NCBI GenBank assembly: GCA_001567355.1
Contig: JYNZ01000002.1
Coordinates: forward strand, 71,477-135,476
Length of the DNA stretch: 64,000 bases
DNA from: a candidate division WS6 bacterium OLB20
GTDB lineage: Bacteria > Patescibacteriota > Dojkabacteria > B142 > OLB20
Direction: 5' to 3'
Part shown: positions 6,573 to 27,502 of the stretch, piece by piece
Numbering within the stretch: position 1 is the stretch's first letter
Layout: each line of letters opens with the position of its first letter
Notes under the pieces: model-generated
Seen by the model: the letters and a program-made list of their open reading frames with translations, nothing else
Told to the model about the DNA's origin: nothing
The model's database searches: none
Position numbers and translations under genes: made by a program

Positions 6573-8166
6573 ATGGCGTTACCCCAGTCGATTACACAAC
6601 TCGTGGCCGCTCACGTGCAGGACAGAAAACGGCTGGAACACAGCGGGGCGCTTCCACAGCTGTCCGTAAGCAGGACTGCCAGTGCAATGGCAAAGTTTTA
6701 TGAGATGGTTCGCAACTCTCTGGAGTACGAGGAAGACCATCTGTTACGAAAGCGAGCCATCAGACGTGTACTGATGCGCATGGGTATACTCAGACGCGAG
6801 GTCACAGAACAGCTTGCACGGGACGTCGTGCGAGAGATGATCTGGGCAAACTACGTTGCAGGATATCCGATACCTGAAACATTACCCCAGTATGTCCAGA
6901 AAAGCCTGGCGAAGTACAGGAAGCTTGTTGTTACCTACATTCATACTTACGGTCACCGTCCTGACGGAGATATCGCCCGGTTTATATATTCCCTGATGGC
7001 CGTCGAGGTTGAGCGTATTCTTGTGCCTCACTCTGCACAGGATATGCAGGTTAATGCCATGTATACGTTTCTGTTACCCATGCAGCTGTTCAAGGACGCC
7101 GGTATCGAAGAAAAAAACATTGCACTGCAGACCTACATCGCTTCTCATCGTGCTCTGCTTAAATCAGATAATGATATTATCTCGTACTATCTGTTTCATA
7201 ACGCTTTGCCGCACTGGCCAAATCCACCTGCCGATTACTACCAGTTTGCTGCACGCCAGCTGGAACGGATTGTCAGAGATATCCGTTCGCAGCTGGGAGT
7301 ATATATCAATCCCAAGCTGACACATGAGGTTGTCAGGCAGGGTATACCATTCAAAATTATTGATCTGATCGTCAGGGACAATCCTGCAGGGGCTGAGGCT
7401 GTTCTGGATGATTCGGGAGCCCTTGATGAAAAGATCGAAGCCGTTGCAACTGACGAGTACCGAAAGATCAAGGGTAAACTTAACGGGACTATTATCAAGA
7501 GCATAATCTACCTGTTTATTACCAAAGCAGTATTTGCTCTGCTGGTTGAGGTTCCCTACGAACATTTTGTTCTTGGTCACATTAATTACTTTACTGTCGC
7601 GGTTAATGTGATTTTTCCGCCGGTGATGCTGTTTATGATCGCCAGCACATTCAGCATTCCTGTGCGGTCAAATACAGCCAAGCTGAAAGAGATGATCCAT
7701 ACTATTCTCAACCCCACAAGTGTTGATATGTCTGCGATCCGAAAGAACTATGCTGATATGGGCAGCCCTTTCCTGCGCTGGGCATTCCGGCTGTTTAATC
7801 TGCTGACATTTTTCGCGGTGTTTGCATTTATCATTACCGGTCTTCTGCTACTTGGCTTCAATATCGTAGGGATTCTGGTGTTTCTGATGTTTCTGACTAT
7901 TATCATGTTTGTGGCGCTTCGTCTGCGCAGAACCGCTACAGAAATTGTTGTGGTGCAGCAGTCGCGCAGTGTGTTCTCTCCGTTTCTGGATCTTGTATCA
8001 GTGCCGCTTTTGCGCATCGGCAGAGGATTGTCCGATACAGTTGCGCAGCTCAATGTATTTATTATTTTTTTTTGACGTTCTGGTAGAGGCACCGTTTAAG
8101 GCCGTAATCAAGGTGATCGAGGAGTGGACGGCGTACCTGCGTGACCGCCGCGATGAGATTGTCTGA
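6573..8166 (+). CDS. membrane protein, hypothetical (~530 aa); apparent 1-nt indel in the T9 run 8065-8073
   Basis: N-terminal soluble region followed by about 4 C-terminal TM helices. The track ORF 7909..8166 continues the reading frame after the T run (...NVFIIFF/FDVLVEAPFKAVIKVIEEW...). Confidence 0.5.
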
Positions 8167-8744: not shown

Positions 8745-10285
8745 AAAAGCTTAATGTAGGAACATACTCCAAGGGATCAAGGTTGAAACAGGTTGAAAAA
8801 CCTGCCGGATCTGGAACATCCCGGCCAAAGAACGGTGGTGGACGTTCATCCCGTAAAGACAGACCAGCGACACGTATCCCGGTTAAGCGGGCAGCAATGG
8901 TTCTTGGTGGCCTGTTTTTTGCAGGGATGCTTGTATTCGGCTATATGCGGCTTCAGGCAATTAATGCCCGGGTGGAAAAATTTGATGAGGGCGGCAATAA
9001 AATCGAGTGCACAAACATTCTTAATCCTGAGTGCTGGACAGACGCATTCAAGCCGCAGCTCAAACAGACTGATGGCTTTACCAACGGTCTCGTTGTGGGA
9101 CTTGATACGAGGACGGGGGGATCTGATTCTCTGCGCAATACTGATACCATCATGTTCTTTTCGTTCAATCACGAAACGCAGAAGACAATGCTGGTTTCAA
9201 TACCCCGTGATTTCTATGTGCCTGTATACGCTACCAAGATAAACGCCATTTACGCGTTTACCGGTGACAGAAAGCCTGAGGATCCATTTTTCTATCTTAA
9301 GGAGACGGTAAGCGACATTGTCGGTCAGCCTATCCACTATTTTGCCACAGTACGTTTTGAAGGCGTCACAGAGGCCATTGACAAGATCGGTGGTATCGAA
9401 GTCTGTATTGAAGATACTCTCACTGCTCAGTATCCGAATGATGAGGCGACTGCATCAAGTCCTGACCAATGGTTGTTTTATGAGTTTGAAGAGGGCTGTC
9501 AGCAGCTCGATGGCGAGCATGCACTTGTCTGGTCCAGGTTCCGCTATGTAAGAAAGGGGCCAAGCGTTTACGCATCTGACTTCTCGAGGGCACGAAGGCA
9601 GCAGCAGGTTCTGGAGTCGGTAAAGGATAAACTGCTCGGTGAAGACAGCTCAGTGTCAGAGAAAGCAGAGTATTACTGGTCCCTGATCGAAACGTTCAGT
9701 GAATCAGTTACGTTCTACGACCTTGCGTTTGAGGACATACTGGCAGGTCTGGCGTTTCTAGATACTGCTGATAAAGATCCCGTAAATGTCGTTCTGGATC
9801 CTGCACTTGGGGGCTATAATTCGCTGATTTATGCGGACAGCTCCACTTCAGCCGGATACACTATCCGAGCCCGTGATGAGTCATACTCGGCGATTCAGAG
9901 CTACCTGGAAAGTATCTGGAAGTTCTCCGATTTCTGGAAGGAGCAACCGACAATTGTTGTGCGGAATGTTTCTGATGTCAAACTGCTTCCAGATGATCAT
10001 CCGGCAGTTGCTCTCAAGGACGATATCGAATTCTACAACGAAATCCTCTACTACAATGAAGAACAGACCGACCAGTTTGCAGGGATAAAAATCTTCGATT
10101 TCACCGCTGGCGAAGTGCCGGGAAGCCTGTCCTGGATCAGTGACTATCTGGGTGTCGACGTCTCTGAGGAGTTGCCTGAACAGTATGGTTTTGAACGAAG
10201 CAGTAAAGAAGAGGATATTCTCATCGTGGTCGGACCGGCAGAGCTACCCACCCCGACACCTTCTGATAGTCCTGAAGCTCAGTAA
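8741..10285 (+). CDS. LytR-CpsA-Psr (LCP) family cell-envelope phosphotransferase
   Basis: N-terminal TM followed by an LCP core (GLDTRTGG...NTDTIMFFSFNHETQKTMLVSIPRDFYVP...INAIYAFTG...VRFEGVTEAIDKIGGIEVCIED). Confidence 0.8.
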   Translation: MKKLNVGTYSKGSRLKQVEKPAGSGTSRPKNGGGRSSRKDRPATRIPVKRAAMVLGGLFFAGMLVFGYMRLQAINARVEKFDEGGNKIECTNILNPECWTDAFKPQLKQTDGFTNGLVVGLDTRTGGSDSLRNTDTIMFFSFNHETQKTMLVSIPRDFYVPVYATKINAIYAFTGDRKPEDPFFYLKETVSDIVGQPIHYFATVRFEGVTEAIDKIGGIEVCIEDTLTAQYPNDEATASSPDQWLFYEFEEGCQQLDGEHALVWSRFRYVRKGPSVYASDFSRARRQQQVLESVKDKLLGEDSSVSEKAEYYWSLIETFSESVTFYDLAFEDILAGLAFLDTADKDPVNVVLDPALGGYNSLIYADSSTSAGYTIRARDESYSAIQSYLESIWKFSDFWKEQPTIVVRNVSDVKLLPDDHPAVALKDDIEFYNEILYYNEEQTDQFAGIKIFDFTAGEVPGSLSWISDYLGVDVSEELPEQYGFERSSKEEDILIVVGPAELPTPTPSDSPEAQ

Positions 10286-11056
10286 TCAGCGTTTACGCGA
10301 GTATGAATGTGCGGTACGACCGGCATGAAGAAGTGCCAGTGATGCTGCCGCAATTGCTACAGCCTTAAATGCATGTCTTCGATGCGTACGCTCCTCAGCT
10401 GCAACTGACACATACTCAAAAGAACGGTGGTTGTGATGTTCTGCTGCATAATGAAATGCAGGCAGCATGTCATGTTCGCCGTCAAGTACAATGATATTGT
10501 CTGTTGTATTGCGAACAATGATATCAACTGCTTCGTGCAGCATGTTATCCTTTATCCGCATTCCGCCGGGTACGTTTCCGTTTGTAAACGGACGTGCTGC
10601 ATGCAGCATTATCCGCTCTTTAAGATTTTTTCCTGCTCCTGTGAGGATGGTTTGTGGGGTTCCTCCGGTCTGTGAGAATGCATTGAATTCATCATCGCTG
10701 TACAGCTGCACTACCGAGACCTGCTCGGGATTATCAGGATTCATAGCATTCTGCAGATCACTGATCCAGTCCTGGGCCCAGTTAAACTGACGCATACGGC
10801 CCGTAAGCACTTTCACAGACATGTCCGGAAACTGTTCCCGCATTTGCGCCAGTCTGAGGAGGCGCTCCTGGTAAAGTGCAAGAAACGGGTAATCTCTGAT
10901 AAAACTATCATCGTTCATCACACCATCAAGATCCATGATCAGTGTGGCAGGACCATTCATAGTTTCTGCAACGCTGATGACCCGGTTCATAGCCTCGTCA
11001 AACGAGGAATGCTTGCTACCGATAAGGTTTTCCAGTCCATGAAGCAGTACTTCCAT
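10286..11056 (-). CDS. HAD-superfamily hydrolase-like protein
   Basis: HAD motif I DLDGV (IMDLDGVMNDD); 256 aa. Confidence 0.4.
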   Translation of the reverse strand: MEVLLHGLENLIGSKHSSFDEAMNRVISVAETMNGPATLIMDLDGVMNDDSFIRDYPFLALYQERLLRLAQMREQFPDMSVKVLTGRMRQFNWAQDWISDLQNAMNPDNPEQVSVVQLYSDDEFNAFSQTGGTPQTILTGAGKNLKERIMLHAARPFTNGNVPGGMRIKDNMLHEAVDIIVRNTTDNIIVLDGEHDMLPAFHYAAEHHNHRSFEYVSVAAEERTHRRHAFKAVAIAAASLALLHAGRTAHSYSRKR

Positions 11057-11276
11057 GAAAAGTATTTATCAATGGGGGCATTATAGCAGAGATCTGGCGC
11101 AATGGCGCAGTCCTGAATTTGACTGTCAGGTACCTGATCAAAGCGGGGTATGGAACGGGGGTAGACTTACTTCAATTGGTGGAACAACACGGGACATACG
11201 GGTCTGGAACCTTTACCCTAATTTCATCATATAAAAATGAGACAAATAAGACACCTAAAAAAAGGAGTATCAAAAG

Positions 11277-12284
11277 TTAAGTCTCATTTAATTTCAGAAA
11301 TTCAGCCAACCTCTCATTAGTATTGAAGACATTGGAAGGTTCAAGTTCAAGTATTTTACAGACTAGGCATTCTGTTGCCCTAATGAACAGTTCCATTTCC
11401 TTTAAATCTAGATCTTTCGGTCGTTTACCAAAATGCACTAATTTATTTCTTGCATTAACTATTCTTCTTATTTCAGCTCTTGAATCACTGTTTAGTACGA
11501 GTCCAAAATAGTTGACTAAAAAGTACGTTATTTTGTACTCACCGGAGAGATCTTTTTCAATCTGCTCATCAGTGAATTCAACACCTTTCTTATTTGCTGG
11601 CCTTGGATTCAATGCTCCAAAGAGATGCTCCCACATAGCCCAGCAAAGAATGAATGTTGGTTCAATATCCATTCTCTGCATAGCTTGCTTGAAGAGAAAT
11701 AAGAAATACCCGTCCCCATATTTAGTTTTCCACTCTGGGGTAGATATTAAATCTAATATTTGATTTATCCCCTTCCCAAAGCCGACATCTGGTTGGTTAA
11801 CAAAGTAGTATTCATCATTCTCTCTTTCTGATTCTGTAAGTGTCTCAAGCGTATCTTCGTTAAAGTATTCTGCTTCATATGCAATTGAACACCTCAGTAT
11901 CCCTCCGTAGTTATACATTCTATGATCGGAGATTAGTGTTGGAGTATCATTGTGTACAGATTCTTCTACAGCAAAGACATTTCTACCTGTAAATATTGAG
12001 AGTACTAAGCAGATATCATTTAGCCTGGTACTATTTGTATTCCCCCATGGTAAACTTGCTTCTTTGTTTATTTCTTGAACTGTACCTGTAGCTTGATGCT
12101 GTCCGGTTTGTATATTGGTTGAGAATTCAGAACCAGAGCTATTTACTAACCACATCATTTTAGAGTGTGCTTCTTCGTAGTTTTCTAGACGTACAAACTC
12201 GTAACCATCTAAAGTCAGTCTTTGAACGTATACAGGGAATTCCAAGTTATAAATTACCATTCTCATTGTTTGTTCACTAATCAT
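11277..12284 (-). CDS. hypothetical protein in a low-GC islet; possible HEPN-domain (Abi-like) protein
   Basis: 335 aa at roughly 33% GC, markedly lower than the flanks. C-terminal RRIVNARNKLVHFGK contains an Rx4H HEPN-like motif. Confidence 0.5.
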   Translation of the reverse strand: MISEQTMRMVIYNLEFPVYVQRLTLDGYEFVRLENYEEAHSKMMWLVNSSGSEFSTNIQTGQHQATGTVQEINKEASLPWGNTNSTRLNDICLVLSIFTGRNVFAVEESVHNDTPTLISDHRMYNYGGILRCSIAYEAEYFNEDTLETLTESERENDEYYFVNQPDVGFGKGINQILDLISTPEWKTKYGDGYFLFLFKQAMQRMDIEPTFILCWAMWEHLFGALNPRPANKKGVEFTDEQIEKDLSGEYKITYFLVNYFGLVLNSDSRAEIRRIVNARNKLVHFGKRPKDLDLKEMELFIRATECLVCKILELEPSNVFNTNERLAEFLKLNET

Positions 12285-12690
12285 TTAATTAATCCTTAAT
12301 ACTGCAGCAATACGCTTTGGTACTTAGTGCATATACTTCAATATGGTACCCCTGAGGAAAGGAAAAGCATACTAGGCGGTATCAAATCAAGGTTTGAATT
12401 AACGGACAGGAAACTAATCCTCAAATAGATTTGTCAAAATTCACTCTTCATAGCTTCTTATAACCAATTTTTCAAGACAGAAACAGGACTGCAACGAATA
12501 TTTAGGCACCAGAAACGCAACCCTAGCAACAAAAAAGCTTAGAACTACAGAGTTGTTTATTTCATCTGTTTTGAAGAAATTTGGAGAATTATGAGGTACT
12601 TTGCGACTTTGAAAAAATTTAGGGCTGATTTAGCAAGCAGTGTATGTGTTTCTAGCGTCGAGAAACGGGTCTTGTCAGAACATAACAAAA

Positions 12691-12778
<88 letters not shown>

Positions 12779-12902
12779 CACACCGGTACGAATCGTTATT
12801 ATACCCCAAAAACTCCCGACAGGCTACGCAGTTTGCCTCTGCGACAGGAATCCCGTTACACTGTAGCAGTGTCAGGTATTTTTATCCGTTATACTCAGAC
12901 CT

Positions 12903-13319
12903 ATGGATCCAATTACTGTGCAGACAGTTGTAAAAGCACCGCTCGATCATGTCTGGAAGTGCTGGACGACTCCCGAGGATATTAACAGCTGGGCGTTTGC
13001 TTCTGCTGACTGGGAAGCCAGAGAGTCGGTGAATGATGTTGTCACCGGAGGAACGTTCAATACTGTAATGGCTGCAAAGGACGGAAGTGCGGCATTTGAT
13101 TTCAGCGGTGTATACACTGTTGTTGAGGAAGGTTCTCTGATCGAGTACGATCTGGATGACCAGCGACATGTGGTTGTAAAGTTTACAGAAACACCTGAAG
13201 GTGTGATTGTCACTCAGACATTTGACCCTGAATCTGAGAACGCACGGGACATGCAGCAGGAAGGCTGGCAGGCAATCCTCAACAATTTTAAATCCTACGC
13301 TGAGCGCACCGTCCGGTAA
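12903..13319 (+). CDS. SRPBCC / AHSA1-like (Activator of Hsp90 ATPase homolog) domain protein
   Basis: 138 aa; ...KAPLDHVWKCWTTPEDINSW... START/Bet v1-like pattern. Confidence 0.65.
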   Translation: MDPITVQTVVKAPLDHVWKCWTTPEDINSWAFASADWEARESVNDVVTGGTFNTVMAAKDGSAAFDFSGVYTVVEEGSLIEYDLDDQRHVVVKFTETPEGVIVTQTFDPESENARDMQQEGWQAILNNFKSYAERTVR

Positions 13320-13344
13320 TTTTTTACGTTCACTGATATCTCCT

Positions 13345-14223
13345 ATGATCAATATTACTCCATGTCTCTGGTTTGACAATAACGCCGAAGAAGCAGTTAC
13401 GTTTTATACCAGGCTGATTAACGGATCGTCCATCACCCTGATGGAAAAGCATCTGTGGGGCGAGTTTGAAGGCAGGGTAAGACTTGCCGAGTTCTCGCTT
13501 GGCGGACTGCCTGTACGCGCATTCGATGCTGGTCCAATGTTTAAATTTACACCAGCCACTTCGTTTTTTGTTGAAGTTGAATCTGAAGAGGAGGTTGACA
13601 GGTTATGGAACGCACTGAGTGACGGTGCAATGGTCAGAATGGATCTGCAGAAGTATGATTTCAGCGAAAAATACGGATGGCTAGTAGACCGTCACGGGTT
13701 GGACTGGCAGATCGGACTGTCTAATAAAACAAAAATATCACCCGCATTACTCTTTGTCGGAGAACAGTTTGGAAAGGCTGAAGAAGCAATGGATCTGTAT
13801 ACTGAGATTTTTCCGGATTCGGCTGTCGCCAGCAAGACACTCTATCCCGAAGGGTCAGGTGATGCAGAAGGTGCAGTAATGTACGGGACTGTGTCTCTGG
13901 CAGGCCTGGATCTGATTCTAATGGACGCAGAAGGATCGCATGACTATTCTTTCTCAGAGGCGTTCTCTCTGTCAGTAGACTGCGAGAACCAGAGCGAAGT
14001 TGACCTCTACTGGGATAAACTGACAGCCGGGGGAGGCAAAGAAAGCAGCTGTGGCTGGCTTAAAGACAGATTTGGTGTCTCGTGGCAGGTTGTACCTTCA
14101 GTGCTCGAGAAGCTGCTTGGTGATCCGGATCAGAAAAAGTCAGCACGCGTAATGGATGCACTGCTTGAAATGAAAAAGCTGTCGGTTGCTGACCTGGAGG
14201 CTGCCTATAATGAGGCCGATTAG
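13345..14223 (+). CDS. tandem VOC/PhnB-like (3-demethylubiquinone-9 3-methyltransferase-domain family) protein
   Basis: Two repeats of PCLWFDNNAEEA...GLxWQ (the second is PALLFVGEQFGKAEEA...GVSWQV). Start ATG at 13345, because the longer track ORF overlaps the upstream gene. Confidence 0.6.
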   Translation: MINITPCLWFDNNAEEAVTFYTRLINGSSITLMEKHLWGEFEGRVRLAEFSLGGLPVRAFDAGPMFKFTPATSFFVEVESEEEVDRLWNALSDGAMVRMDLQKYDFSEKYGWLVDRHGLDWQIGLSNKTKISPALLFVGEQFGKAEEAMDLYTEIFPDSAVASKTLYPEGSGDAEGAVMYGTVSLAGLDLILMDAEGSHDYSFSEAFSLSVDCENQSEVDLYWDKLTAGGGKESSCGWLKDRFGVSWQVVPSVLEKLLGDPDQKKSARVMDALLEMKKLSVADLEAAYNEAD

Positions 14224-16943: not shown

Positions 16944-17041
16944 ACTAACAGTCTAGCAGGTTGTCCGGCAGCAGACCAGAGCTGTGCGGTACTCATACAA
17001 AACCATGCTATAATCCTCTGTTGATTTTTCAAACAGTATTA

Positions 17042-19715
17042 ATGAACAATACTCTCCTTGCAGGTATCTCGGTCGCCTTCATCAGACGCTTCAGAGTAAC
17101 ACTGCTGATATTCTTCGGCATTCTGCTGGTCGGGGCATTCACATACACATCTCTTCTCAAACGCGAAGGCTTTCCTGCCATTGAGGTACCTACAGCTGTT
17201 ATTCAGGCAACATATTTCGTTAATGATACTGCTGCGGTTGACGAGCAGGTGACCGCTCCGATTGAAACAGTCCTGCGCGAAAACGAATCTGTGGAACAGG
17301 TACGATCTACCACAGATGCCAACTTTGCAGTCTTTGTCGTCCAGTTTCGTGATGGTATTTCAAGCGAGGACGGGGTCGACTCGGTCAGGGGTGATATTGC
17401 TGAACGGCTGCAGTTGCCGGCTGAGGCAACTCTCGGTTATACAACCTTTAATGCCTCTAGTGTTGATGGTGAGAATGACATGCTCTTCAACCTCTACGGC
17501 GATGACGAGCAGGCTTTATATGCTGCAGCGCAGCAGGCTGTCAGCGGACTGAACAGGCTTTCGGTTGTAGGAGAAGCCTCGGTTATTGATCAGTACAGAG
17601 AGCAGATAAATCCGCTGACAGGTGAGCCGGTAACACTGCAGGTCTCGTTTAACAGGGTCGGCGTGCGCGAGCGGGAAGGACTTACCTTCTACCCGGCTGT
17701 GTCAGTGGGGGTGATCAAGAAGTCTGATGCGATCGGAACGGTTGAGCTGTCTGAAGCTGTACGTGAAGAAATCAAGCAGCAGCAGGATACAGATCTGTTT
17801 GAGGGCATTGAGGTAACCTACGGAGGAGACCTTGCTGACGTCCTGACCTCACAGATAGGGTCACTTGAAAGCAATGTTCTTTCGGGATTGCTGGCCGTAG
17901 TTGTTGTACTTTTCTTCTTTGTAAACTGGCGGGCATCCATAGTAACAGCCATTTTCATTCCCACCGTACTTGCCGCCACGTTTATTGCACTTCTGCTTGT
18001 CGGTTATTCGTTGAATGTGCTTTCACTGTTTGCAATCATTCTGGTACTCGGACTGTTTGTCGATGACGCCATTGTTGTTGTAGAGGCGATTGACTACCAG
18101 AAAAAGCAAGGGAAACAGGGTGTTGCTGCTGTCCGAGATGCAGTCAGAGCAGTCGGTGCTGCTGATATTTCAGGAACAGTGACTACACTTCTGGTGTTTC
18201 TGCCGATGGCGGCGATCTCGGGTATTCTCGGTGACTTTATCAGGCTTATTCCCATCACAGTAATAATCGCGCTGGCATTGTCACTCGTCATTGCCCTGAC
18301 AATCGTACCGCTGCTTTCACATATTCTTCTTACAGGCGAACATAAGGATACGACTTTCCCCGAGAAGATGCTGCATACAGTTTTTTACGGGTTCAGTGAT
18401 CTGATCCAGGGGGCAGGACGGCTGATGAGTGAATTCGTCAGACTGTACCTTTCGGTCCCTTTGCTTGGTGCAGGTATCGTCGTGCTTGCACTGGCTGCTG
18501 TCTTTGTAGGTGGCTCATTCGCAGGACAGCTTAAGTTCAGCATCTTTCCTGCACCTGACGATACCGACCAGATTAGTGTCTCGATCTCATTCCCGGAGGG
18601 ACAGCGATTGCTGATGCCCAGGATATTGCGACTGAGGTCGAACAGATCCTTACAGAAGAAGCAGGAGAGGAGATTATGTCCGTCAATTACTTTGGAGCGG
18701 ACAGCACTTCTGCGACTTTGAGTATCGAGCTGACTGAAATGGGAACGAGACCTGTGTCAGCCGAGATTACTGATGACCTCGAGGATGTGTTTGCTGACTA
18801 TGACAGGGTAAGCGTCAAAGTTGTGCAGAGCAGTGCCGGTCCGCCTGTGTCGGATTATCCGTTTGCGATGCAGGTGTTTTCTGAAGACCCTGCGGTACTT
18901 GCCGGCGCAACTGGCGAGCTTGCAGACTTCATCAGGGACATAGACCTGAGCAGCGAAAATGAAGTAACCGAGGTTGCAGTATTTAACCTTGAAACACTGA
19001 CTAAACTTGACGGAAGGCGCTTTGCTGAAGTCAAGGCAAAGTTTTCGAATCCTGAGGACAGTGCAGGATTACTGGAGATTCAAGAGCAGGTCACAGCGGA
19101 ATTTGATGAGGGCAGACTTGAGGATCTTAATCTCGAGAGTGATGCGCTGGGTTTTGATTTCGGTCAGGAGTCAGAAAACCTGTCTTCATTCCAGTCAGCT
19201 GCATTTGCACTGATTGTTGCACTGATTGCCATGTACGGACTCCTTGTTCTGCAGTTTAATTCCTTTCTGCAACCGGTACTTGTCTTTCTTGCGATACCAT
19301 TCAGTTTTGTCGGGCTGTTCCCGGGGCTTGTACTCACTGGCAACGCCTCAGCTTTTTTGTCATGATCGGTCTTACCGGACTGATGGGTATAGTTGTCAAT
19401 AATACAATCATGCTGCTGGACTTTGCGAATCAGGAACGTGCAGAAGGCAAGGGGATTATCGATGCTGCAGCTGATGCTGTAAAAATACGTTTCCGGCCGC
19501 TTGTCACCACCTCATTCACAACTGTTGCAGGTCTTCTGCCGCTTGCTCTCACTGATCCCTTCTGGGAGCCGCTGGCGTTTACCATCATCTTTGGACTGGT
19601 ATCAAGCACTCTGATGGTGATTATTGCGTTCCCTGCATTTTATGCTGCAGTGGAGACAGTCAGAAACGGACGCCGCTATCTGCAGCAGCGCATCGCAAAG
19701 GTTTTCGTATCTTAA
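17042..19715 (+). CDS. RND-superfamily efflux/export permease (AcrB-like), interrupted by two apparent 1-nt indels (~18592-18600 and T6 19353-19358)
   Basis: Three consecutive track ORFs (16961..18721, 18676..19365, 19362..19715) read as one AcrB-like protein. They include VLGLFVDDAIVVVEAI (AcrB has AIGLLVDDAIVVVENV) and 12 TM segments. The first ORF tail (QRLLMPRILRLRSNR...) is out-of-frame garbage. Confidence 0.7.
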
Positions 19716-19762: not shown

Positions 19763-20179
19763 ATGCCGTCCTCGCTCCGCTATATGTTGCTGTTACTGTT
19801 TCTGATAGTACTGATTGCAGGATGTTCCGCAGTCATCACTTCTGTTGTGCTTCTGCCCTCACAGCGAACGTTCTGGCAGGTATGCCAGCCTGACGAGGTC
19901 GGTTTTTATGATGCTGAATACTGCATCTCCGTTGTTGAGGAACGTACCTTTTACCAGGAGCTAACCGGAGGCAGCACATTCTATCTTGCGATTGCCCCCT
20001 ACGAAGGTGATCCTGTCTATTCTCACCGCAAACAGTACAGTTTCAACCACGGCTCTGCTGATGTCTATCAGCATATTCAGATGTCTTCGGTTACATGGGA
20101 AGAGGAAGGCATCACGTTTACCGAGGCATCCGGGCACAGGCTCTTCTTTCCGTTCGAAATGTTTTCGGGCGGTCGCTAG
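19763..20179 (+). CDS. secreted/lipoprotein-like hypothetical (138 aa)
   Basis: Signal peptide with a ...LIAGCSAV lipobox-like cysteine. Confidence 0.4.
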   Translation: MPSSLRYMLLLLFLIVLIAGCSAVITSVVLLPSQRTFWQVCQPDEVGFYDAEYCISVVEERTFYQELTGGSTFYLAIAPYEGDPVYSHRKQYSFNHGSADVYQHIQMSSVTWEEEGITFTEASGHRLFFPFEMFSGGR

Positions 20180-20190
20180 GTATCCGTTTA

Positions 20191-20219
20191 TTGACAAATG
20201 GGTATACAGGGTATACTAT
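20191..20219 (+). promoter_or_regulatory. lexA promoter (-35 TTGACA, 17-nt spacer, -10 TACTAT) with an embedded inverted repeat GTATAC-AGG-GTATAC; candidate SOS operator
   Basis: Sequence ttgacaaatgGGTATACagGGTATACtatg lies immediately upstream of the lexA ATG at 20246. Confidence 0.45.
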
Positions 20220-20245
20220 GAAGCATACTTTAGTGAATATTGCCC

Positions 20246-20882
20246 ATGGCACCCCACCTCACTGCAACACAGGCATCAGTCCTCAAATATATAAAAAATC
20301 ATATTCTGGCACGCGGTTATGCGCCGACACTGTCAGAGCTGCAGGCCGCGCTGGGGGGGGATTACCAAACGTGCTGTTGTCAAACATCTTGAGGCTCTTG
20401 AGAAAAAGGGCCGGATCCTGCGATCAAGCAAACCCCGTGGTATTAAACTGATTGAGGTGCAGAATGAAAACCTGATGACGATGAACATTCTGGGGTATGC
20501 AAATGCCGGTGCACCCCTGGTGTACGCTGAAGAACAGAAGATCGGAGTCCTCCGTATTGATAAGAGTCTTCTGCCGGTGACTAAAAACGTGTTTGCGCTT
20601 GTTGTTAAGGGTGACTCAATGAACAGACGTAAACTTAACGGCACAGCACTGACCAATGGCAACTATGCCATTGTGGCCAACGATCAGCCGGTCAGTAACG
20701 GTGACGTGGTACTGGCTATTATTGACGGTTGCGCAACCATAAAATCCTACCGGCGTGACGGCGGTATTATTGTCTTGTATCCCGAATCAACCAACAGTGC
20801 TCACCGCCCTATTTATTTAAGCAGTGACAGCGACGGAACCATCTACGGCAAGGTGATCTCCGTCCTCGCTAACCCTGTCTGA
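20246..20882 (+). CDS. lexA: LexA repressor (S24 peptidase); apparent 1-nt indel in the G8 run 20353-20360
   Basis: The N-terminus MAPHLTATQASVLKYIKNHILARGYAPTLSELQAALGG continues, after removing one G, as ITKRAVVKHLEALEKKGRILRSSKPRGIKLI. It has the Ala-Gly cleavage site (NAGAP), GDSM serine and ATIK lysine. Confidence 0.75.
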
Positions 20883-20887
20883 TACAC

Positions 20888-21292
20888 ATGAACAGCATAC
20901 GCGGACAGCTGCTTGCGAGCAGCTCGGTAAGTGCCGGCTTTCCTTCTCCGGCAGAAGACGTCATTGACCGTACACTTGATCTTCATGAACTGCTGGTCAA
21001 ACATCCTGCTGCAACATTTTTTGTCAGGGTGCAGGGGCACTCCATGACCGGGGCAGGTATTGTCAGTGGTGATATTCTGGTTGTCGACCGTTCGCTTAAG
21101 GCGCAGGACGGGGATGTGGTTATAGCGCTTCTTGATGGAGAGTTTACGGTTAAACGTCTGCAGCAGCGTGGATCATCTCTGATGCTGATTCCGGCCCATG
21201 CTGACTTTGCTCCGGTACATATCCGCGAGGGTGATGACTTTGAAGTCTGGGGCGTTGTGACAGGTGTTGTCCGTGAACTGCTGCACCCGTGA
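20888..21292 (+). CDS. umuD: UmuD-like S24 peptidase (translesion synthesis accessory subunit)
   Basis: SAGFPSPAEDV (the cleavage site, compare CGFPSPAADY), GHSM, FTVKRL. Confidence 0.75.
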   Translation: MNSIRGQLLASSSVSAGFPSPAEDVIDRTLDLHELLVKHPAATFFVRVQGHSMTGAGIVSGDILVVDRSLKAQDGDVVIALLDGEFTVKRLQQRGSSLMLIPAHADFAPVHIREGDDFEVWGVVTGVVRELLHP

Positions 21293-22557
21293 TTGCCGTT
21301 GTTGACTGTAACAACTTTTTTGTTTCCTGCGAGCGTGTGTTTCACCCGAGGCTTCGTAACAAGCCGGTAGCTGTTGCTTCCAATAATGACGGCTGTATTG
21401 TCGCCAGGTCCCAGGAGGTGAAGGCACTGGGTATTCCAATGGGTGCTCCCGCGTTTAAGTGGAAGGATGTGCTGCAGCGCCATGATGTCAAAGTATTTTC
21501 AGGTAACTTTCCGCTGTATGGTGATATGTCCCGGCGTGTAATGAGTATTCTGCATGAGGTCGCGCCTGAGGTCGAAGTGTACTCAATTGATGAAGCGTTT
21601 CTTGATTTTGAGGGGTATTACAAAACAGATCTGCTTGAGTACTGTCGCGAGGTGCGTGCGCAGATCCTCAACTGGACAGGTATACCTGTCAGCATAGGTG
21701 TGGGACCGACCAAGACCATTGCCAAGGCGGCAGCGGATATTGCCAAGAAAAACCCCGAACTCGCCGGAATCGCAGGCACAGAGACACCTGGTTTTGATAA
21801 TTATCTCGAACGGCTTCCTGTCGGTGATATTTGGGGGGTGGGCAGAGCATTTACCCGCCAGTTGCAGAGCAGAGGTATTTTTACCGCAGGTGATCTGCGC
21901 AGGCTGTCGCTGACATGGGCACGGCAGCGCCTGGGCGTTGTCGGGCAGCGTACCCTGCTTGAACTTAAAGGCATCAGGTGTTTTGACCTGCAGCATGAGG
22001 TCCCCACACGTAAGGGAATTATTGCCTCCAGATCTTTTGGCACAATGGTTGAAGACAGGGATTCGCTGGCACAGTCGATCGCCCTTCATGCAACCCGTGC
22101 CGGTGAACGTCTGCGTAAAGACGGTTCTGTTGCAGGAGTTGTGCAGGTTGTCATTATGACAAACCGGCACCGCCAGGATCTGGCACAGTATTTTTCGAGT
22201 GCAACCTGCCGTCTGCTGCAGCCCAGCTCGTACACGCCTGACCTGATTGGTGCAGCTCATCGTGCCCTTGACCGGATCTACCGGTCGGGTTTCCTCTACA
22301 AGAAGAGCATGGTGATGCTGCATGACATTACGCCTCAGGACCAGATTCAGCTAAGTATGTTCCATACCTATAAGGACCGGCCGCGCGAGGCGCTGCTGAT
22401 GCAGGCGGTTGATAAGCTTAATACCCGGTTTGGCCGCACGCGCCTCCAGTACGCGGCAAGCGGAATTACAACCAGGAAGAAGTGGCACCCCCGCCGCGAG
22501 CATGCATCACAACGCTTTACGACAAGCTGGCAGGAGCTGCCGGTGGCATATCTGTGA
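21289..22557 (+). CDS. umuC: Y-family DNA polymerase (UmuC-like)
   Basis: MIAVVDCNNFFVSCERVFHP...SIDEAFLD... Y-family N-terminal palm motifs. Overlaps the umuD stop. Confidence 0.8.
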   Translation: MIAVVDCNNFFVSCERVFHPRLRNKPVAVASNNDGCIVARSQEVKALGIPMGAPAFKWKDVLQRHDVKVFSGNFPLYGDMSRRVMSILHEVAPEVEVYSIDEAFLDFEGYYKTDLLEYCREVRAQILNWTGIPVSIGVGPTKTIAKAAADIAKKNPELAGIAGTETPGFDNYLERLPVGDIWGVGRAFTRQLQSRGIFTAGDLRRLSLTWARQRLGVVGQRTLLELKGIRCFDLQHEVPTRKGIIASRSFGTMVEDRDSLAQSIALHATRAGERLRKDGSVAGVVQVVIMTNRHRQDLAQYFSSATCRLLQPSSYTPDLIGAAHRALDRIYRSGFLYKKSMVMLHDITPQDQIQLSMFHTYKDRPREALLMQAVDKLNTRFGRTRLQYAASGITTRKKWHPRREHASQRFTTSWQELPVAYL

Positions 22558-22585
22558 TATAATGATTATAGATTAAGAGGATACA

Positions 22586-23674
22586 ATGTCTGGTGAGTTT
22601 AATCTACCGGAACTGGAATCTGCACACGCTGCTGGCCGCGGAGAACTGCTGGGCAGGATTGTTGAGCGTGTGAGACGTCATATTGCAAATGAGCATGATC
22701 GTGAGCAGCTGCGACCCCGTAAACTGCTCGGACTTATGACCAAGTTTGCCATGGAGGTCGGCAATATGGTGAAGCCGATTGATCGCGGGCCGATAGTCTC
22801 AGGAGGAACGCTGGTGCAGGATGACAATTTCGTTGTCTATCAGCTGTACCGCAAAGCCCAGGAGGGAGATACAAGAGACTACAGAGCAGCCGGGGCACTG
22901 ACATACTTTCCTGCAGGATTGAATCTTCGTATTGAACCGTTTCTGAAGCGGACGCAGTCTATCGAGTCATATGTCAGACAGCGCGCTGTAAATCATCCCG
23001 GGACTGTAGCATGTATTGACGGGCCGACATTCCGCCTGCGGCAGCTGGGGCAGATTCTGGAGGATCACCCCGGGTACGCATCATACCTGATGAGCAGGCA
23101 CCCCCTGGCGACAGAGGCTGAAGTGCCAAGTGACTGGCTTATGATTAACGGTCAGGAAATGGTACCTATGCATGGCAGTGAAGGGCATCAGCGCGGTGCC
23201 ATCTATCAGCCCCGCTCCGGAGCAGCTGTAATTCTCAGCGAGCATGAAGCTGTTGCAATGAAAGATGCCGGTGAGCTGCGGGAGGGTATTGTGCTTGGTA
23301 CACCAGGATTTCTGACTCTGACAACAGATAGCGACGAACTTGCATCCATCAGCGTGGCATTAAACGGACGTATCCAGAATTATTCTGCCTTTGCAGAATT
23401 ATATGGTGACAACGATACGCTTTACGGTTATATCTACCTTAACCTGCAGAGGCTTACCCTGGAGGAGTTCCATTCGGTACTTTCGGGATATGCAGACTGT
23501 ATTCTGGAACAGCAGGGTACAAAAGACAAGACTATGCGAGCTGTTCTGCTGGAGCTGGAAGACAGTATGGCAATAGTGATAAAAGACGGTAAGCCTGTAA
23601 AAGCAGGTCAGGACCCTGAAAGTTCATCACATACTCGTAATTTTCATCTTATTCTTGAACATTCAGGTTCATAA
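22586..23674 (+). CDS. hypothetical protein (362 aa), fourth gene of the lexA-umuDC transcription unit
   Basis: 28 nt after umuC on the same strand; no recognisable domain. Confidence 0.5.
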   Translation: MSGEFNLPELESAHAAGRGELLGRIVERVRRHIANEHDREQLRPRKLLGLMTKFAMEVGNMVKPIDRGPIVSGGTLVQDDNFVVYQLYRKAQEGDTRDYRAAGALTYFPAGLNLRIEPFLKRTQSIESYVRQRAVNHPGTVACIDGPTFRLRQLGQILEDHPGYASYLMSRHPLATEAEVPSDWLMINGQEMVPMHGSEGHQRGAIYQPRSGAAVILSEHEAVAMKDAGELREGIVLGTPGFLTLTTDSDELASISVALNGRIQNYSAFAELYGDNDTLYGYIYLNLQRLTLEEFHSVLSGYADCILEQQGTKDKTMRAVLLELEDSMAIVIKDGKPVKAGQDPESSSHTRNFHLILEHSGS

Positions 23675-25175
23675 AGGCAGCTCCCACTTCATCCAGCAGA
23701 TCAGAGGCCCGCATAGCAAGCTGAGAATGTTTCTGTGCCGCGATGTCTCCAGCCAGTCCATGAATGTATGCACCAAGAATTGCTGCTTCCTCCGGTGACC
23801 AGCCCTGCGCTATCAGTCCAGTGATTATTCCAAGTAAGGCATCGCCTGTGCCGGCTGTAGCCATACCCGGATTGCCGCTGGAGTTGAAATGAACCTGTCC
23901 GCTTGCGAGCGCAACCATTGTATAGTGACCTTTGAGGACAACCGTGATGTTATGTGTTGCCACAAAGCCCTGCAACGCATCAAGAAGCTCAAATCCATCT
24001 CTCCATGAGCCAGCCAGGCGTTCAAATTCACCTGCATGAGGTGTAAGTACCGTTCCGGGTGGCAGCATGTCCAGCATCTCAGGTTCATCAGCCAGAATGT
24101 TTAACGCGTCTGCGTCCAGGACAAGCTTTGTATCAAGCTCGGATCGGGCGAGCAGATCCTCAAGCATTTCTGCAGTATCATGATGAGTGCCGATCCCCGG
24201 ACCGATCCCCGTTACAGTAAAACGGTCTGGATCAAAACCGCTGTCGGTGATGATGGTTTTACTACCGTCTGCCAGAACCATAACTTCTGGAAGAGCGTTC
24301 AGCAAAATATCATGCGCGGCTGCCGGAACTCGTGCACTGACCTTGCCGCTTCCGGCTACCAGAGCTCCCCGGGCAGCCAGTACAGCAGCGCCATAGGTAC
24401 CTTTTGCTCCTGCAATGATGTAACTGTGTCCATAGTCGCGTTTGTCACTGAACACCCTGCGAATGTTTGTTCTCAGCAGTTTGCCGGCTACCTCCCTTGT
24501 GGTCCAGTAGAACTGTCCTGGCAGCTCCTCCATAAATTTATGACTGATGCCGGTATGAGCAATATCAAAGCTGCCGACAAAATCCTCGTTGTCACGCAGC
24601 AGAAAGGCAAGGGGAGGACGCTCGAATGTGATCACATGATCAGCTGCGACTGCAATTCCGTCCGTACGTTCATCCATCAGCATGCCGCTTGGCACATCAA
24701 TTGATACAGTAAGACCTTCGTGTGAGTTAATATGTGTAATTACTGTTGCAAGCAGGGAGTCGTCAGCCACAGCACCGCTGATTCCGCTTCCGAGGAGCGC
24801 ATCCACGATTATGGTGTCCTTATTGTGCTCCGGCAGAGTGCTCTGATCTGTCAGTTCGTAAACAGGAACTGTCTGCATTGCGCGCAGACGTTCCGCCTGT
24901 GCGGAAAACTGTTTTGATGTATCCTTGCGATGGTTGACAATAAACACGCGCGGATCATATGCACGTTTTTTAAGAAGTCTGGCAACCGCAAGTCCGTCAG
25001 CCCCGTTGTTACCCTGGCCGCAGTAAATCTGAATCCTGCTTCCACGTTCGCAGCGACTGATCAGGTATTCACTGACTGCCTTTGCGGCACGTTCGATTAA
25101 TGTCTGCTCGGGCGTCCCTCCCGCAATTGTAAAGTTATCAGCGTCTTTTCGCTGTGCTGCAGTAAGAATCTTCAT
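23649..25175 (-). CDS. nnr: bifunctional NAD(P)H-hydrate repair enzyme Nnr (epimerase plus ADP-dependent dehydratase)
   Basis: N-terminal YjeF_N (IYCGQGNNGADGLAVARLL) and C-terminal carbohydrate-kinase-like domain (GPGIG...GNPGMATAGTGD). Start chosen at MKILTAAQ (25175) rather than the longer track ORF. Confidence 0.8.
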   Translation of the reverse strand: MKILTAAQRKDADNFTIAGGTPEQTLIERAAKAVSEYLISRCERGSRIQIYCGQGNNGADGLAVARLLKKRAYDPRVFIVNHRKDTSKQFSAQAERLRAMQTVPVYELTDQSTLPEHNKDTIIVDALLGSGISGAVADDSLLATVITHINSHEGLTVSIDVPSGMLMDERTDGIAVAADHVITFERPPLAFLLRDNEDFVGSFDIAHTGISHKFMEELPGQFYWTTREVAGKLLRTNIRRVFSDKRDYGHSYIIAGAKGTYGAAVLAARGALVAGSGKVSARVPAAAHDILLNALPEVMVLADGSKTIITDSGFDPDRFTVTGIGPGIGTHHDTAEMLEDLLARSELDTKLVLDADALNILADEPEMLDMLPPGTVLTPHAGEFERLAGSWRDGFELLDALQGFVATHNITVVLKGHYTMVALASGQVHFNSSGNPGMATAGTGDALLGIITGLIAQGWSPEEAAILGAYIHGLAGDIAAQKHSQLAMRASDLLDEVGAAFMNLNVQE

Positions 25176-25230
25176 ACAGTCATTGTAGATCAAGCTCTGC
25201 AAAAGCACAAAACTGCAGTATAATCGGTAC

Positions 25231-26506
25231 ATGCAGAAGCAGAATACCGACGTGACAATCATTGGAGGTGGTGCAGCCGGGATAATGGCTGCAATCACAC
25301 TTAAAAGAAAATACCCTGATAAACAGGTGATACTTACAGACAGAACATTTGCCCTTGGTCGCAAGATACTGGTCTGCGGCGCAGGCAGGTGCAATATTAC
25401 TAATGTCAATCTCGAAAACGGACCCCAGGGTCATTACTACGGAGCAGAAGCCTCCTTTGTGTCAGCAGTGATGGAACGCTTTGCGTACGAAGATATCGTG
25501 AACTTTTTTGCAGACCTCGGTGTCGAAGTGTACGTGGAGCTGAAGCGCAGTATCGGAAAACTGTTCCCGGTGACCAACAGGGCTGACACAATCACCGAAA
25601 TGCTCATAGACGAGCTCAACCGTCTTGGGGTCAAAGTGTGGCTTAACAGTGAGGTTACCGGCATAACGCCTGCTGATGAAGGGTTTGACATCCAACTGTC
25701 TCATACGGTACGCGAGCAGTCACTGACTCTGAGAAGTACGGTATGTATTCTTGCCGCAGGTGGAAAAACCTATCCTGCCCTCGGTTCAAACGGCAGCGGA
25801 TATGACCTTGCAGAATCGCTCGGGCACACGATAATCGAGCCTGTACCGTCTGCGCTGCCTGTTGAAGCAGAAAACGAGCTGTCAGATAAACTGCAGGGAA
25901 TACGAGTTGAGATGGAGGCCACAGCAGTCATTGAAGGAAAAGACGGAAAACAGAGCACTGATGAGGTGATGTTTACAAAGTACGGACTGTCAGGACCCGC
26001 AATTCTCAATATCAGTCGTGAGATCTCGATTCATATCAACCGTCATGGCGGTAGCAGTGCCGGGATCCGGTTGAACGCATTTCCGGGTCTGTCAGAAGAC
26101 AACGTAATCGAACTTCTTGAGAAGCGCTGGACAAAACGGCCTGATCAACTTGTTAATGTCAGTATGTACGGCCTGTTCCCGAACAAAGTTGCAGATGTCT
26201 TCTCAGAACTTGCAGGCCTTCCAGACAGAACGTCCGGTTCTTTGACACCGGCAGAAAAAAAAGAAGCTTGTCGCAATAATGACAGAGTACACAATTCCTG
26301 TTACAGCAACCCGCACATGGAATGAGGCAGAATTTACAGCCGGTGGTGTCGACACAGTCGAAGTCAACCCGGCAACACTTGAATCACACAAGCACAAGGG
26401 ACTTTACCTCTGCGGAGAAATATTGAACGTCGATGGCGATGTCGGAGGCTACAACCTTTCATGGGCGTGGGCATCCGGCTTTGTTGCAGGTAATCTGGGC
26501 GCTTGA
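25231..26506 (+). CDS. HI0933/BaiN-family FAD-dependent oxidoreductase; apparent 1-nt indel in the A8 run 26255-26262
   Basis: DVTIIGGGAAGIMAA...ILVCGAGRCNITN at the N-terminus. The C-terminal GGVDTVEVNPATLESHKHKGLYLCGEILNVDGDVGGYNL is in the other frame (track ORF 26279..26506). Confidence 0.7.
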
Positions 26507-26560: not shown

Positions 26561-27502
26561 ATGGAGCTGACTACTGAGATGCTGCGAAGCAATGGAAGGC
26601 TGACGCAGGAAACAATCACTGCACGGCAGGAATATGCCGGTATGGTAATTGCAGAAGGCCTGCGGGAAGGCCGCAACTATTCAGTCTACGGACTGATGGG
26701 CGGAGGCAAAACAGGTACTCTTGGTGTCGTTTGCCGTCTTATTCCTGATCTTGTCATGTTTAAACTCGCAGGTGCACAGCGGGGCAACGAGCAGGAAAAC
26801 TCCATCTGGCAGAGAAACGGTGCTCCGATAACCGGTGACGTCAGGCCAGTCAAATCAATCGCAGATGTTTACCAGCAGATCTGTTCAGGACTTGTCAGAC
26901 CGGGGACACCGATCAGTCTTAATGAGGCACAGTTTATGGCAGATTCGCCGGCTGATCTGATGCGCATGTATGAACTGGCTGCGAAAAACCGTAACGGAGT
27001 GTTTGCCGATTGTCTTGTGTCATGGTTTGACGGTCAGCCGAATGAAAACACAGAAGCAATTGTACACAGGTCTGATGCAGCTTTTTTCATGGCAGGATGG
27101 GACAGCTTTACCGGAGAGCCGGCTGATTTCACCATCAGACTTGTAGGAATAAAAAACGGCAGTGTGATTGAGCAGCATTCAGAAGATACATACTACCGGG
27201 GTATGACTGCAGTGCAGCGGATGCGTCTCGCAAATGCAGTTGATGTCAGTGTTTTCGGCAGTGGTCTGCGTATGATTGATCCTGACGGGCACCAGATCGG
27301 TGAGTGTACCGGCATGCCCTCGCATCACGCAGACCCGAGATACGCAATAGGAGCAAGCAGATACCGAACAGCAACTCTTGAGAATTATCACAGAATATAT
27401 GAAGCAGCTGAGATCAGCCTGCCCGCCGACAGTATCGTTCCGGCAAGTAAACTGTTCCCCCTGGCAAACCGCGTTGACTGGAATTCTGTCACTATTGATT
27501 GA
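26561..27502 (+). CDS. hypothetical protein with a P-loop-like GLMGGGKTG motif
   Basis: 313 aa. Its stop overlaps the start of the giant surface protein, so the two are probably translationally coupled. Confidence 0.4.
   Translation: MELTTEMLRSNGRLTQETITARQEYAGMVIAEGLREGRNYSVYGLMGGGKTGTLGVVCRLIPDLVMFKLAGAQRGNEQENSIWQRNGAPITGDVRPVKSIADVYQQICSGLVRPGTPISLNEAQFMADSPADLMRMYELAAKNRNGVFADCLVSWFDGQPNENTEAIVHRSDAAFFMAGWDSFTGEPADFTIRLVGIKNGSVIEQHSEDTYYRGMTAVQRMRLANAVDVSVFGSGLRMIDPDGHQIGECTGMPSHHADPRYAIGASRYRTATLENYHRIYEAAEISLPADSIVPASKLFPLANRVDWNSVTID

Follow-up and report, generated by a model that had tools for sequence, protein, structure and literature searches.

A 64-kb stretch of DNA from candidate division WS6 bacterium OLB20, referred to here in its entirety as the window, carries the genes lexA, umuD and umuC followed by a fourth gene, ORF4. 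Our analysis suggests that the first three form an autoregulated SOS operon of an uncultured, ultra-small bacterium of the Dojkabacteria, a lineage of the Patescibacteria or candidate phyla radiation (CPR), that LexA would control this operon from a repeat of the hexamer GTATAC at its promoter, and that ORF4 is an orphan gene with a promoter of its own, a reading to which we assign a probability of about 0.8. The source is reflected both in the ORF4 product, which is identical to a protein recorded for the same bacterium, and in the relatives of the window LexA, which carry Candidatus Dojkabacteria labels. From the identities of the genes, the geometry of their promoter and the conservation of its hexamers among relatives, we infer that LexA is the binding protein and how it would repress.

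In the switch that we propose, a sigma70-type promoter (TTGACA, a spacer of 17 nt, TACTAT) would drive lexA, umuD and umuC, and LexA bound to tandem GTATAC hexamers in the spacer and the -10 element would exclude RNA polymerase. DNA damage would activate RecA and thereby trigger self-cleavage of LexA at A87-G88 through S124 and K166, which would derepress the operon; UmuD would then cleave itself at A16-G17, and the resulting UmuD' together with UmuC would form the translesion polymerase Pol V. The operator motif proposed here is specific to the lineage, yet it is ordinary in kind, and the system would work like a canonical SOS switch. A very small genome would thus keep a complete and self-contained mutagenesis switch, with repressor, operator and Pol V in one transcription unit.

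GTATAC hexamers at the lexA promoter

The sequence details given in an earlier note on this DNA, made from the letters alone, hold throughout: promoter, repeat, gene packing and a frameshift in lexA are all as it described them. The combination TTGACA-17-TACTAT is the most promoter-like site between positions 19500 and 24500 (10/12 matches), and the repeat that covers it consists of GTATAC at 20202-20207, AGG at 20208-20210 and a second GTATAC at 20211-20216. A perfect GTATAC-N3-GTATAC occurs once in the 64 kb and in 0 of 100 dinucleotide-preserving shuffles. The note had also stated that the site resembles neither of two familiar SOS boxes, and reading positions 20150-20250 of the lexA promoter we likewise found neither the E. 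coli type (CTGT-N8-ACAG) nor the Cheo box (GAAC-N4-GTTC).

The evidence that carries the operator proposal is comparative. We assembled 80 lexA loci with 6-kb flanks from species-representative genomes, nearly all of them Dojkabacteria or unclassified CPR bacteria, and in nearly every locus the 126 nt upstream of lexA proved rich in GTATAC. Counted from -150 to +10 of lexA, the hexamer occurs 230 times in 12.7 kb (18.1 per kb), a 45-fold enrichment over the remaining 737 kb of these loci, where its density is 0.40 per kb. At least two GTATAY hexamers are present in 76 of the 78 lexA promoters scored but in only 13 of 376 control promoters (about 3%), the controls being taken from sequence ahead of non-lexA genes in these loci; four of these 13 belong to divergent genes that share the intergenic region of lexA, and the remaining nine lack the N3 arrangement. 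Three or more hexamers are found in 58 of the 78 lexA promoters, and if one mismatch is allowed, 32 of the 80 loci have an N3 pair located 35-55 nt ahead of the ATG of lexA. The nearest clade (L001-L009 and L169) shares the layout TTGAC-N6-7-GTATAC-N3-GTATAC-yAT, which is the geometry of the window, and a lexA-recA operon from Peribacteria has GTATAT-ACT-GTATAT behind TTGACC. As a negative control, a metagenome scan with a UmuC profile yielded 80 umuDC loci from other phyla at 40-47% identity, and none of these contains a GTATAY pair.

Such conservation is strong phylogenetic footprinting of a regulatory site at the lexA promoter. By far the likeliest protein to bind it is LexA, because autoregulation of LexA is the rule. 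In the window protein and 29 orthologues, the recognition helix (helix 3) has R42, V44, V45 and L48 invariant and T40 and K41 nearly so, which fits a hexamer that has likewise stayed unchanged. The GTATAC pair is thus very probably the LexA operator of this lineage, as the earlier note had proposed, located at the core promoter in about 76 of 78 Dojkabacteria/CPR lexA loci and rare at other promoters.

Alternatively, the hexamers might serve the promoter itself, or another regulator that controls lexA might bind them. The second hexamer overlaps the -10 element, so that promoter function could explain part of the conservation, and the variable distance between hexamers is atypical for LexA. 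We nevertheless consider this explanation very improbable. The spacer holds the first hexamer, and others lie downstream of the -10 element and close to the start codon, positions that promoter function would give no reason to conserve, and the motif is rare at other promoters of the same genomes. The general habit of LexA to regulate itself points the same way, and in clades whose lexA stands alone the motif goes with lexA and not with umuDC.

How the site should be divided into units is a separate question. The earlier note called GTATAC-AGG-GTATAC an inverted repeat; a perfect repeat does cover the promoter, but GTATAC is itself palindromic, so an inverted orientation is not diagnostic and a direct repeat is an equally possible reading, and it is the direct one that the flanks favour. 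Read as a direct repeat of period 9, GGGTATAC-A-GGGTATAC, the window site extends further than when read as an inverted one. Over 31 distinct N3 sites the two flanks match in direct orientation at 18/31 and 13/31 and in inverted orientation at 6/31 and 1/31, counts that are indicative only because the sequences are related to one another. Across the loci, spacings between successive hexamers cluster at 3, 8 and 16 nt (17, 24 and 48 cases), and a more distant clade has four hexamers spaced 16-8-16. Given this clade-specific spacing and a third perfect hexamer in the closest relative locus (L169), the unit that is conserved and recognized is apparently a single hexamer, (G)GTATAC(Y), arranged in the window as a direct repeat of 9-bp period and in relatives as arrays of two to four.

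Several observations weigh against LexA control as proposed. Spacing that differs by clade (N3, N8, N16) is unusual for the site of a dimeric LexA. A position weight matrix (PWM) built from the 31 distinct N3 sites and run over the window and all fetched loci, together with a search for pairs, returned no second operator site, whether in the window or in the flanks of related loci (about 750 kb). The lexA gene is frameshifted in this record, and a genuine shift could mean that no repressor is produced.

Two further repeats were noticed in related loci. In one locus (L005, 5880-6000), tandem repeats of TTGATAC(C/T) lie between a GTATAC pair at -432 and lexA. In distant-clade lexA genes (L021, L028, L033, L036, L039, L041 and some 20 other loci), two GTATAC hexamers 26 nt apart, at +193/+225, fall inside the coding region; such intragenic pairs could be a coincidence of codons or an internal operator, and we set them aside as extra operator sites because they are codons for RGI and VYDY.

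Extent of the proposed control, and the lexA, umuD and umuC genes

Canonical LexA in Patescibacteria is said to govern a small network centred on translesion synthesis, with ribonucleotide reductase reportedly among its targets. Our data support control of lexA itself and of its operon partners only, the partners being umuDC in the near clade (L001, L002, L004, L006-L009) and recA in the Peribacteria locus; in the distant clade lexA stands alone. The earlier note had suggested looking for the repeat at other genes, and this search found none in the window or the related flanks. PWM hits away from lexA are coding coincidences or weak AT-rich sequence: the hit in L063 and related loci encodes the trxB peptide VYIVY, and the one at position 12228 of the window lies inside a HEPN_Apea-like gene. 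Ribonucleotide reductase was rejected as a target, as nrdR-nrdDG promoters in more than 30 loci show NrdR boxes and no GTATAC pairs. In L004, L006 and L009, lexA and umuD seem to be separated by a gap that could hold another promoter; we rejected this, since the gap is a longer UmuD N-terminus. As a side observation, many distant-clade Dojkabacteria have nrdG-nrdD-nrdR convergent to lexA (L045, 6655-9566; L063, 7508-10044), and the nrdR promoters of those loci carry clear NrdR boxes (ACAATATATTGT).

The description of lexA-umuD-umuC as an SOS cassette stands. The domains and catalytic residues of all three proteins were identified, and the interrupted frame of lexA is the sole departure from what these families require. 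Residues 1-37 of the first lexA frame match the winged-helix domain PF01726 (residues 4-37, E 1.3e-7), and the second frame encodes an S24 peptidase domain (PF00717, E 2.6e-19). Deleting one G from a run of eight yields a LexA of 211 aa that aligns end to end with 29 orthologues and has the cleavage site A87-G88 and the catalytic residues S124 and K166, all in invariant columns. This repaired protein, which is the one compared throughout, is 83% identical to LexA of the sister species L001; its closest intact relative is P0124. In UmuD, A16-G17 aligns with the cleavage site C24-G25 of the E. coli protein, and the catalytic residues S52 and K89 align with its S60 and K97. The catalytic acids of UmuC, D6 and D101-E102, are invariant. 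The genes are tightly packed, with successive gaps from lexA through umuD and umuC to ORF4 of 5, -4 and 28 nt.

No uninterrupted reading frame exists for lexA in the window, and this appears to be the only lexA seen there. The shift may be real, in which case the sampled population would lack a DNA-binding LexA, lexA-umuDC (and ORF4, by read-through) would be constitutive and the lineage would potentially be a mutator; we hold this to be a serious possibility, at somewhat below even odds. An independent Logan contig (run SRR29904083) with an identical ORF4 has gene calls of 229, 117, 138, 187, 134, 422 and 362 aa, the same fragmented lengths as the window, so the frameshift is reproducible and may be real, and the idea of a simple homopolymer sequencing error is weakened to that extent. 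The truncated LexA product of 187 aa is on record for three contigs. A nearby acrB (twice) and a HI0933-like gene are frameshifted too, with intact orthologues, and the other open reading frames (ORFs) of the window that we checked are not obviously fragmented, which indicates that errors are not everywhere. Yet three of the four shifts lie at or near homopolymer runs (G8, A8, T6), where sequencing reads typically go wrong. The two operator hexamers are perfect and the catalytic residues intact, which speaks against a long-standing loss of function, and lexA is unbroken in the closest relative locus, L169. A real frameshift would still be compatible with GTATAC as the LexA operator and would alter only the present state of the switch.

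The UmuD proteins of this group differ in ways that stand apart from these questions. The window UmuD is nearer to UmuD of other phyla (L083-L162, up to 55-56%) than to that of L001 and L002 (42-49%). In the sister species L001, UmuD (6655-6975) has 106 aa and has lost both the catalytic serine (GNQL for GHSM) and the lysine, and probably cannot cleave itself.

ORF4, the gene downstream of umuC

The earlier note presented ORF4 as a candidate SOS-regulated function coupled to translesion synthesis and recommended remote homology searches and structure prediction for its product of 362 aa. These produced two relatives, no annotation and poor models. Among 1.84 billion representative proteins the relatives are P0122 (39% identity) and P0123 (23-25%); a profile search of 5.8 billion sequences and an exhaustive phmmer search returned no others, and searches of Pfam, PHROGs, PADLOC and PDB profiles gave no match. 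Compared with the window, the L081 locus has 38-39% identity in ORF4, 82% in the UmuC C-terminus and 68% in Nnr, so ORF4 evolves much faster than its neighbours. All three family members lie downstream of umuC and before a convergent nnr, and in L082 two genes, for a DNA_alkylation repair protein (PF08713) and a short-chain dehydrogenase, separate umuC from the ORF4 homologue (1286-2751). ORF4 is missing from L002 and from the sister species L001, which was seen in dozens of samples and whose LexA is 83% identical; in both, umuC adjoins nnr. The junction of umuC and nnr looks like a variable spot.

A promoter belonging to ORF4 itself is indicated by the 9-mer TGATATAAT, an extended -10 element found ahead of all three copies, its end 9-24 nt from the start codon; the TGA of this element is the umuC stop codon in both the window and L081. 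The TGNTATAAT sites of the window bear this out, as all five are correctly oriented towards a gene that starts 10-27 nt further on, where 1.4 would be expected by chance. The genome would thus appear to make frequent use of extended -10 promoters with very short leaders, and on the strength of the five sites ORF4 very probably has its own promoter. The PWM found no conserved operator at this promoter (22555-22563) in the window or L081, and a weak match only, with a score of 12.8, in L082.

ORF4 is thus most likely a lineage-restricted, fast-evolving orphan transcribed from its own extended -10 promoter. We found no terminator in the 28-nt gap between umuC and ORF4, so read-through from the lexA promoter is possible, and coupling of ORF4 to the SOS response could arise in this way, although the sequences do not indicate it. 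Since ORF4 very probably has a promoter of its own and is missing from the sister species, its SOS control is at most possible, and the earlier proposal of an SOS-regulated gene coupled to translesion synthesis loses further ground from the two genes that part ORF4 from umuC in L082.

Might ORF4 nonetheless be induced in the SOS response as a genuine partner of Pol V, a so far undescribed accessory protein of translesion synthesis that shares a transcript with umuC and works on the polymerase or the lesion? The gene lies on the same strand as umuC, 28 nt behind it with no intervening terminator, every family member is found downstream of umuC, one of the genes that intervene in L082 is itself a repair gene, and the top, if weak, Foldseek matches of the ORF4 model are Y-family polymerases. 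We think this unlikely, because ORF4 has its own conserved extended -10 element and no conserved operator, and because it is absent from L001 and L002 and from the 80 umuDC loci of other phyla. The whole neighbourhood (acrB to nnr, the HI0933-like gene and an ORF of 313 aa) is syntenic, so the adjacency of ORF4 and umuC is weak evidence.

The structural resemblance carries equally little weight. AlphaFold models of ORF4 reach a predicted local distance difference test (pLDDT) score of 33 from one sequence and 46 from three, with residues 200-325 at 55-83, and Foldseek matches of the model with pLDDT 46 are insignificant (mostly Y-family polymerases, E at least 0.06, template modelling (TM) score at most 0.19). 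An hhalign comparison of ORF4 with UmuC gave a probability of 0.13%, so neither comparison makes ORF4 a Y-family polymerase; the Protein Data Bank (PDB) holds very many Dpo4 entries, and we treat the predicted resemblance as a lead only. A bolder version, which we regard as decidedly unlikely, would make the ORF4 family a rapidly evolving Pol V accessory of Dojkabacteria, expressed at a basal level from its own promoter with a boost by read-through from the LexA promoter, and would give its C-terminal beta-alpha-beta-beta-alpha-beta domain a role resembling that of a Y-family little finger, with DNA or the polymerase as its target.

Known systems and neighbouring genes

The SOS network of Patescibacteria and its LexA-binding motif have been studied by comparative and in vitro means (Sanchez-Osuna, Barbe, Erill, Environ Microbiol 2017; 19:3465, PMID 28618189), and the same group cites this 2017 motif among direct-repeat LexA motifs. 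The kind of motif is therefore already known, and the GTATAC repeat, which the earlier note thought might newly define the SOS box of this lineage, is probably not new. In repeat structure, the feature compared here, the published box and ours agree, both being of the direct-repeat type. What our analysis contributes is a clean comparative definition of the Dojkabacteria operator as arrays of GTATAC hexamers. Three points might add to existing knowledge: the fact that an otherwise invariant hexamer is spaced differently from clade to clade, with implications for the way in which LexA sites change in evolution; the orphan ORF4; and, if the lexA frameshift is real, a natural SOS-constitutive lineage.

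The proteins and the plan of the operon resemble those of E. coli. LexA has the same winged helix-turn-helix and S24 domains, an Ala-Gly cleavage site and a Ser/Lys dyad, and its putative operator overlaps the core promoter; UmuD, with its aligned cleavage site, and the Y-family polymerase UmuC are likewise of the E. coli kind. In contrast to E. coli, where lexA and umuDC are two separate units, they form one operon here, and the operator is unrelated in sequence to CTGT-N8-ACAG, being a direct repeat with a 9-bp period instead of a 16-bp palindrome. Tandem half-sites are shared with GTTC-N7-GTTC of Alphaproteobacteria and Acidobacterium and with TTACACATATTTTWTACATA of Balneolaeota, but the half-site differs, the period is 9 bp as against 11 bp, and the half-site here is a 6-bp palindrome of ambiguous orientation. 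The Bdellovibrio palindrome TTAC-N3-GTAA resembles the inner part of the site, ATAC-N3-GTAT, in its N3 geometry and TAC/GTA core; unlike it, the site described here conserves full GTATAC hexamers and their flanks, and the flanks are without inverted symmetry. In lexA2-imuA-imuB-dnaE2 cassettes, lexA lies directly upstream of error-prone polymerase genes and is co-regulated with them. The operon of the window likewise has lexA at the head of polymerase genes, though it encodes UmuD'2C (Pol V) in place of ImuB and DnaE2.

Table 1. Positions of promoter elements, genes and other features in the 64-kb window
Feature	Position	Strand	Remark
-35 hexamer TTGACA of the lexA-umuDC promoter	20191..20196	+	TTGAC kept in near-clade loci L001-L009, L169
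Putative LexA operator, tandem GGGTATAC-A-GGGTATAC	20200..20216	.	spans the spacer and first half of the -10
-10 hexamer TACTAT	20214..20219	+	17-nt spacer after TTGACA; overlaps second GTATAC
Degenerate third hexamer GCATAC	20223..20228	.	aligned with a perfect GTATAC in closest relative L169
lexA, two frames (20246-20359, 20352-20882)	20246..20882	+	PF01726, then PF00717
G8 run with +1 frameshift	20353..20360	+	orthologues read GGGAGGT or TGGGGGT
umuD, 134 aa	20888..21292	+	PF00717; 47% identical to E. coli UmuD
umuC, 422 aa, Y-family subunit of Pol V	21289..22557	+	IMS, IMS_C, IMS_HHH, DUF4113
Extended -10 TGATATAAT	22555..22563	+	overlaps umuC stop; ends 22 nt upstream of ORF4 start
ORF4, 362 aa, KXK27309.1	22586..23674	+	three-sequence orphan family, no Pfam match
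nnr (YjeF_N/Carb_kinase), convergent	23649..25175	-	3' end overlaps ORF4 by 26 nt; marks unit end
TGNTATAAT extended -10 sites	4344, 6555, 11080(-), 17006, 22555	- where marked	upstream of gene starts

Genes on either side of the operon add some minor observations. The acrB-like gene (17039-19715) has two frame changes, one close to 18595 and one at a T6 run around 19354, and the HI0933-like gene (25201-26497) does so at an A8 run at 26255; the L001 orthologues of both are intact. Between acrB and lexA lies an ORF of 138 aa (19763-20179) with a lipoprotein-like signal (LIAGC), which is present in L169 and absent from L001. The ORF of 313 aa (26561-27502) has no Pfam match; L001 (36% identity) and the P0123 contig both have it conserved in syntenic position. 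Farther upstream, the stretch 10000-14000 has a lower GC content (0.43-0.44 vs about 0.50), contains the HEPN_Apea-like gene (11277-12284, minus strand) near a tRNA-Ser (12692-12779), and may be an island.

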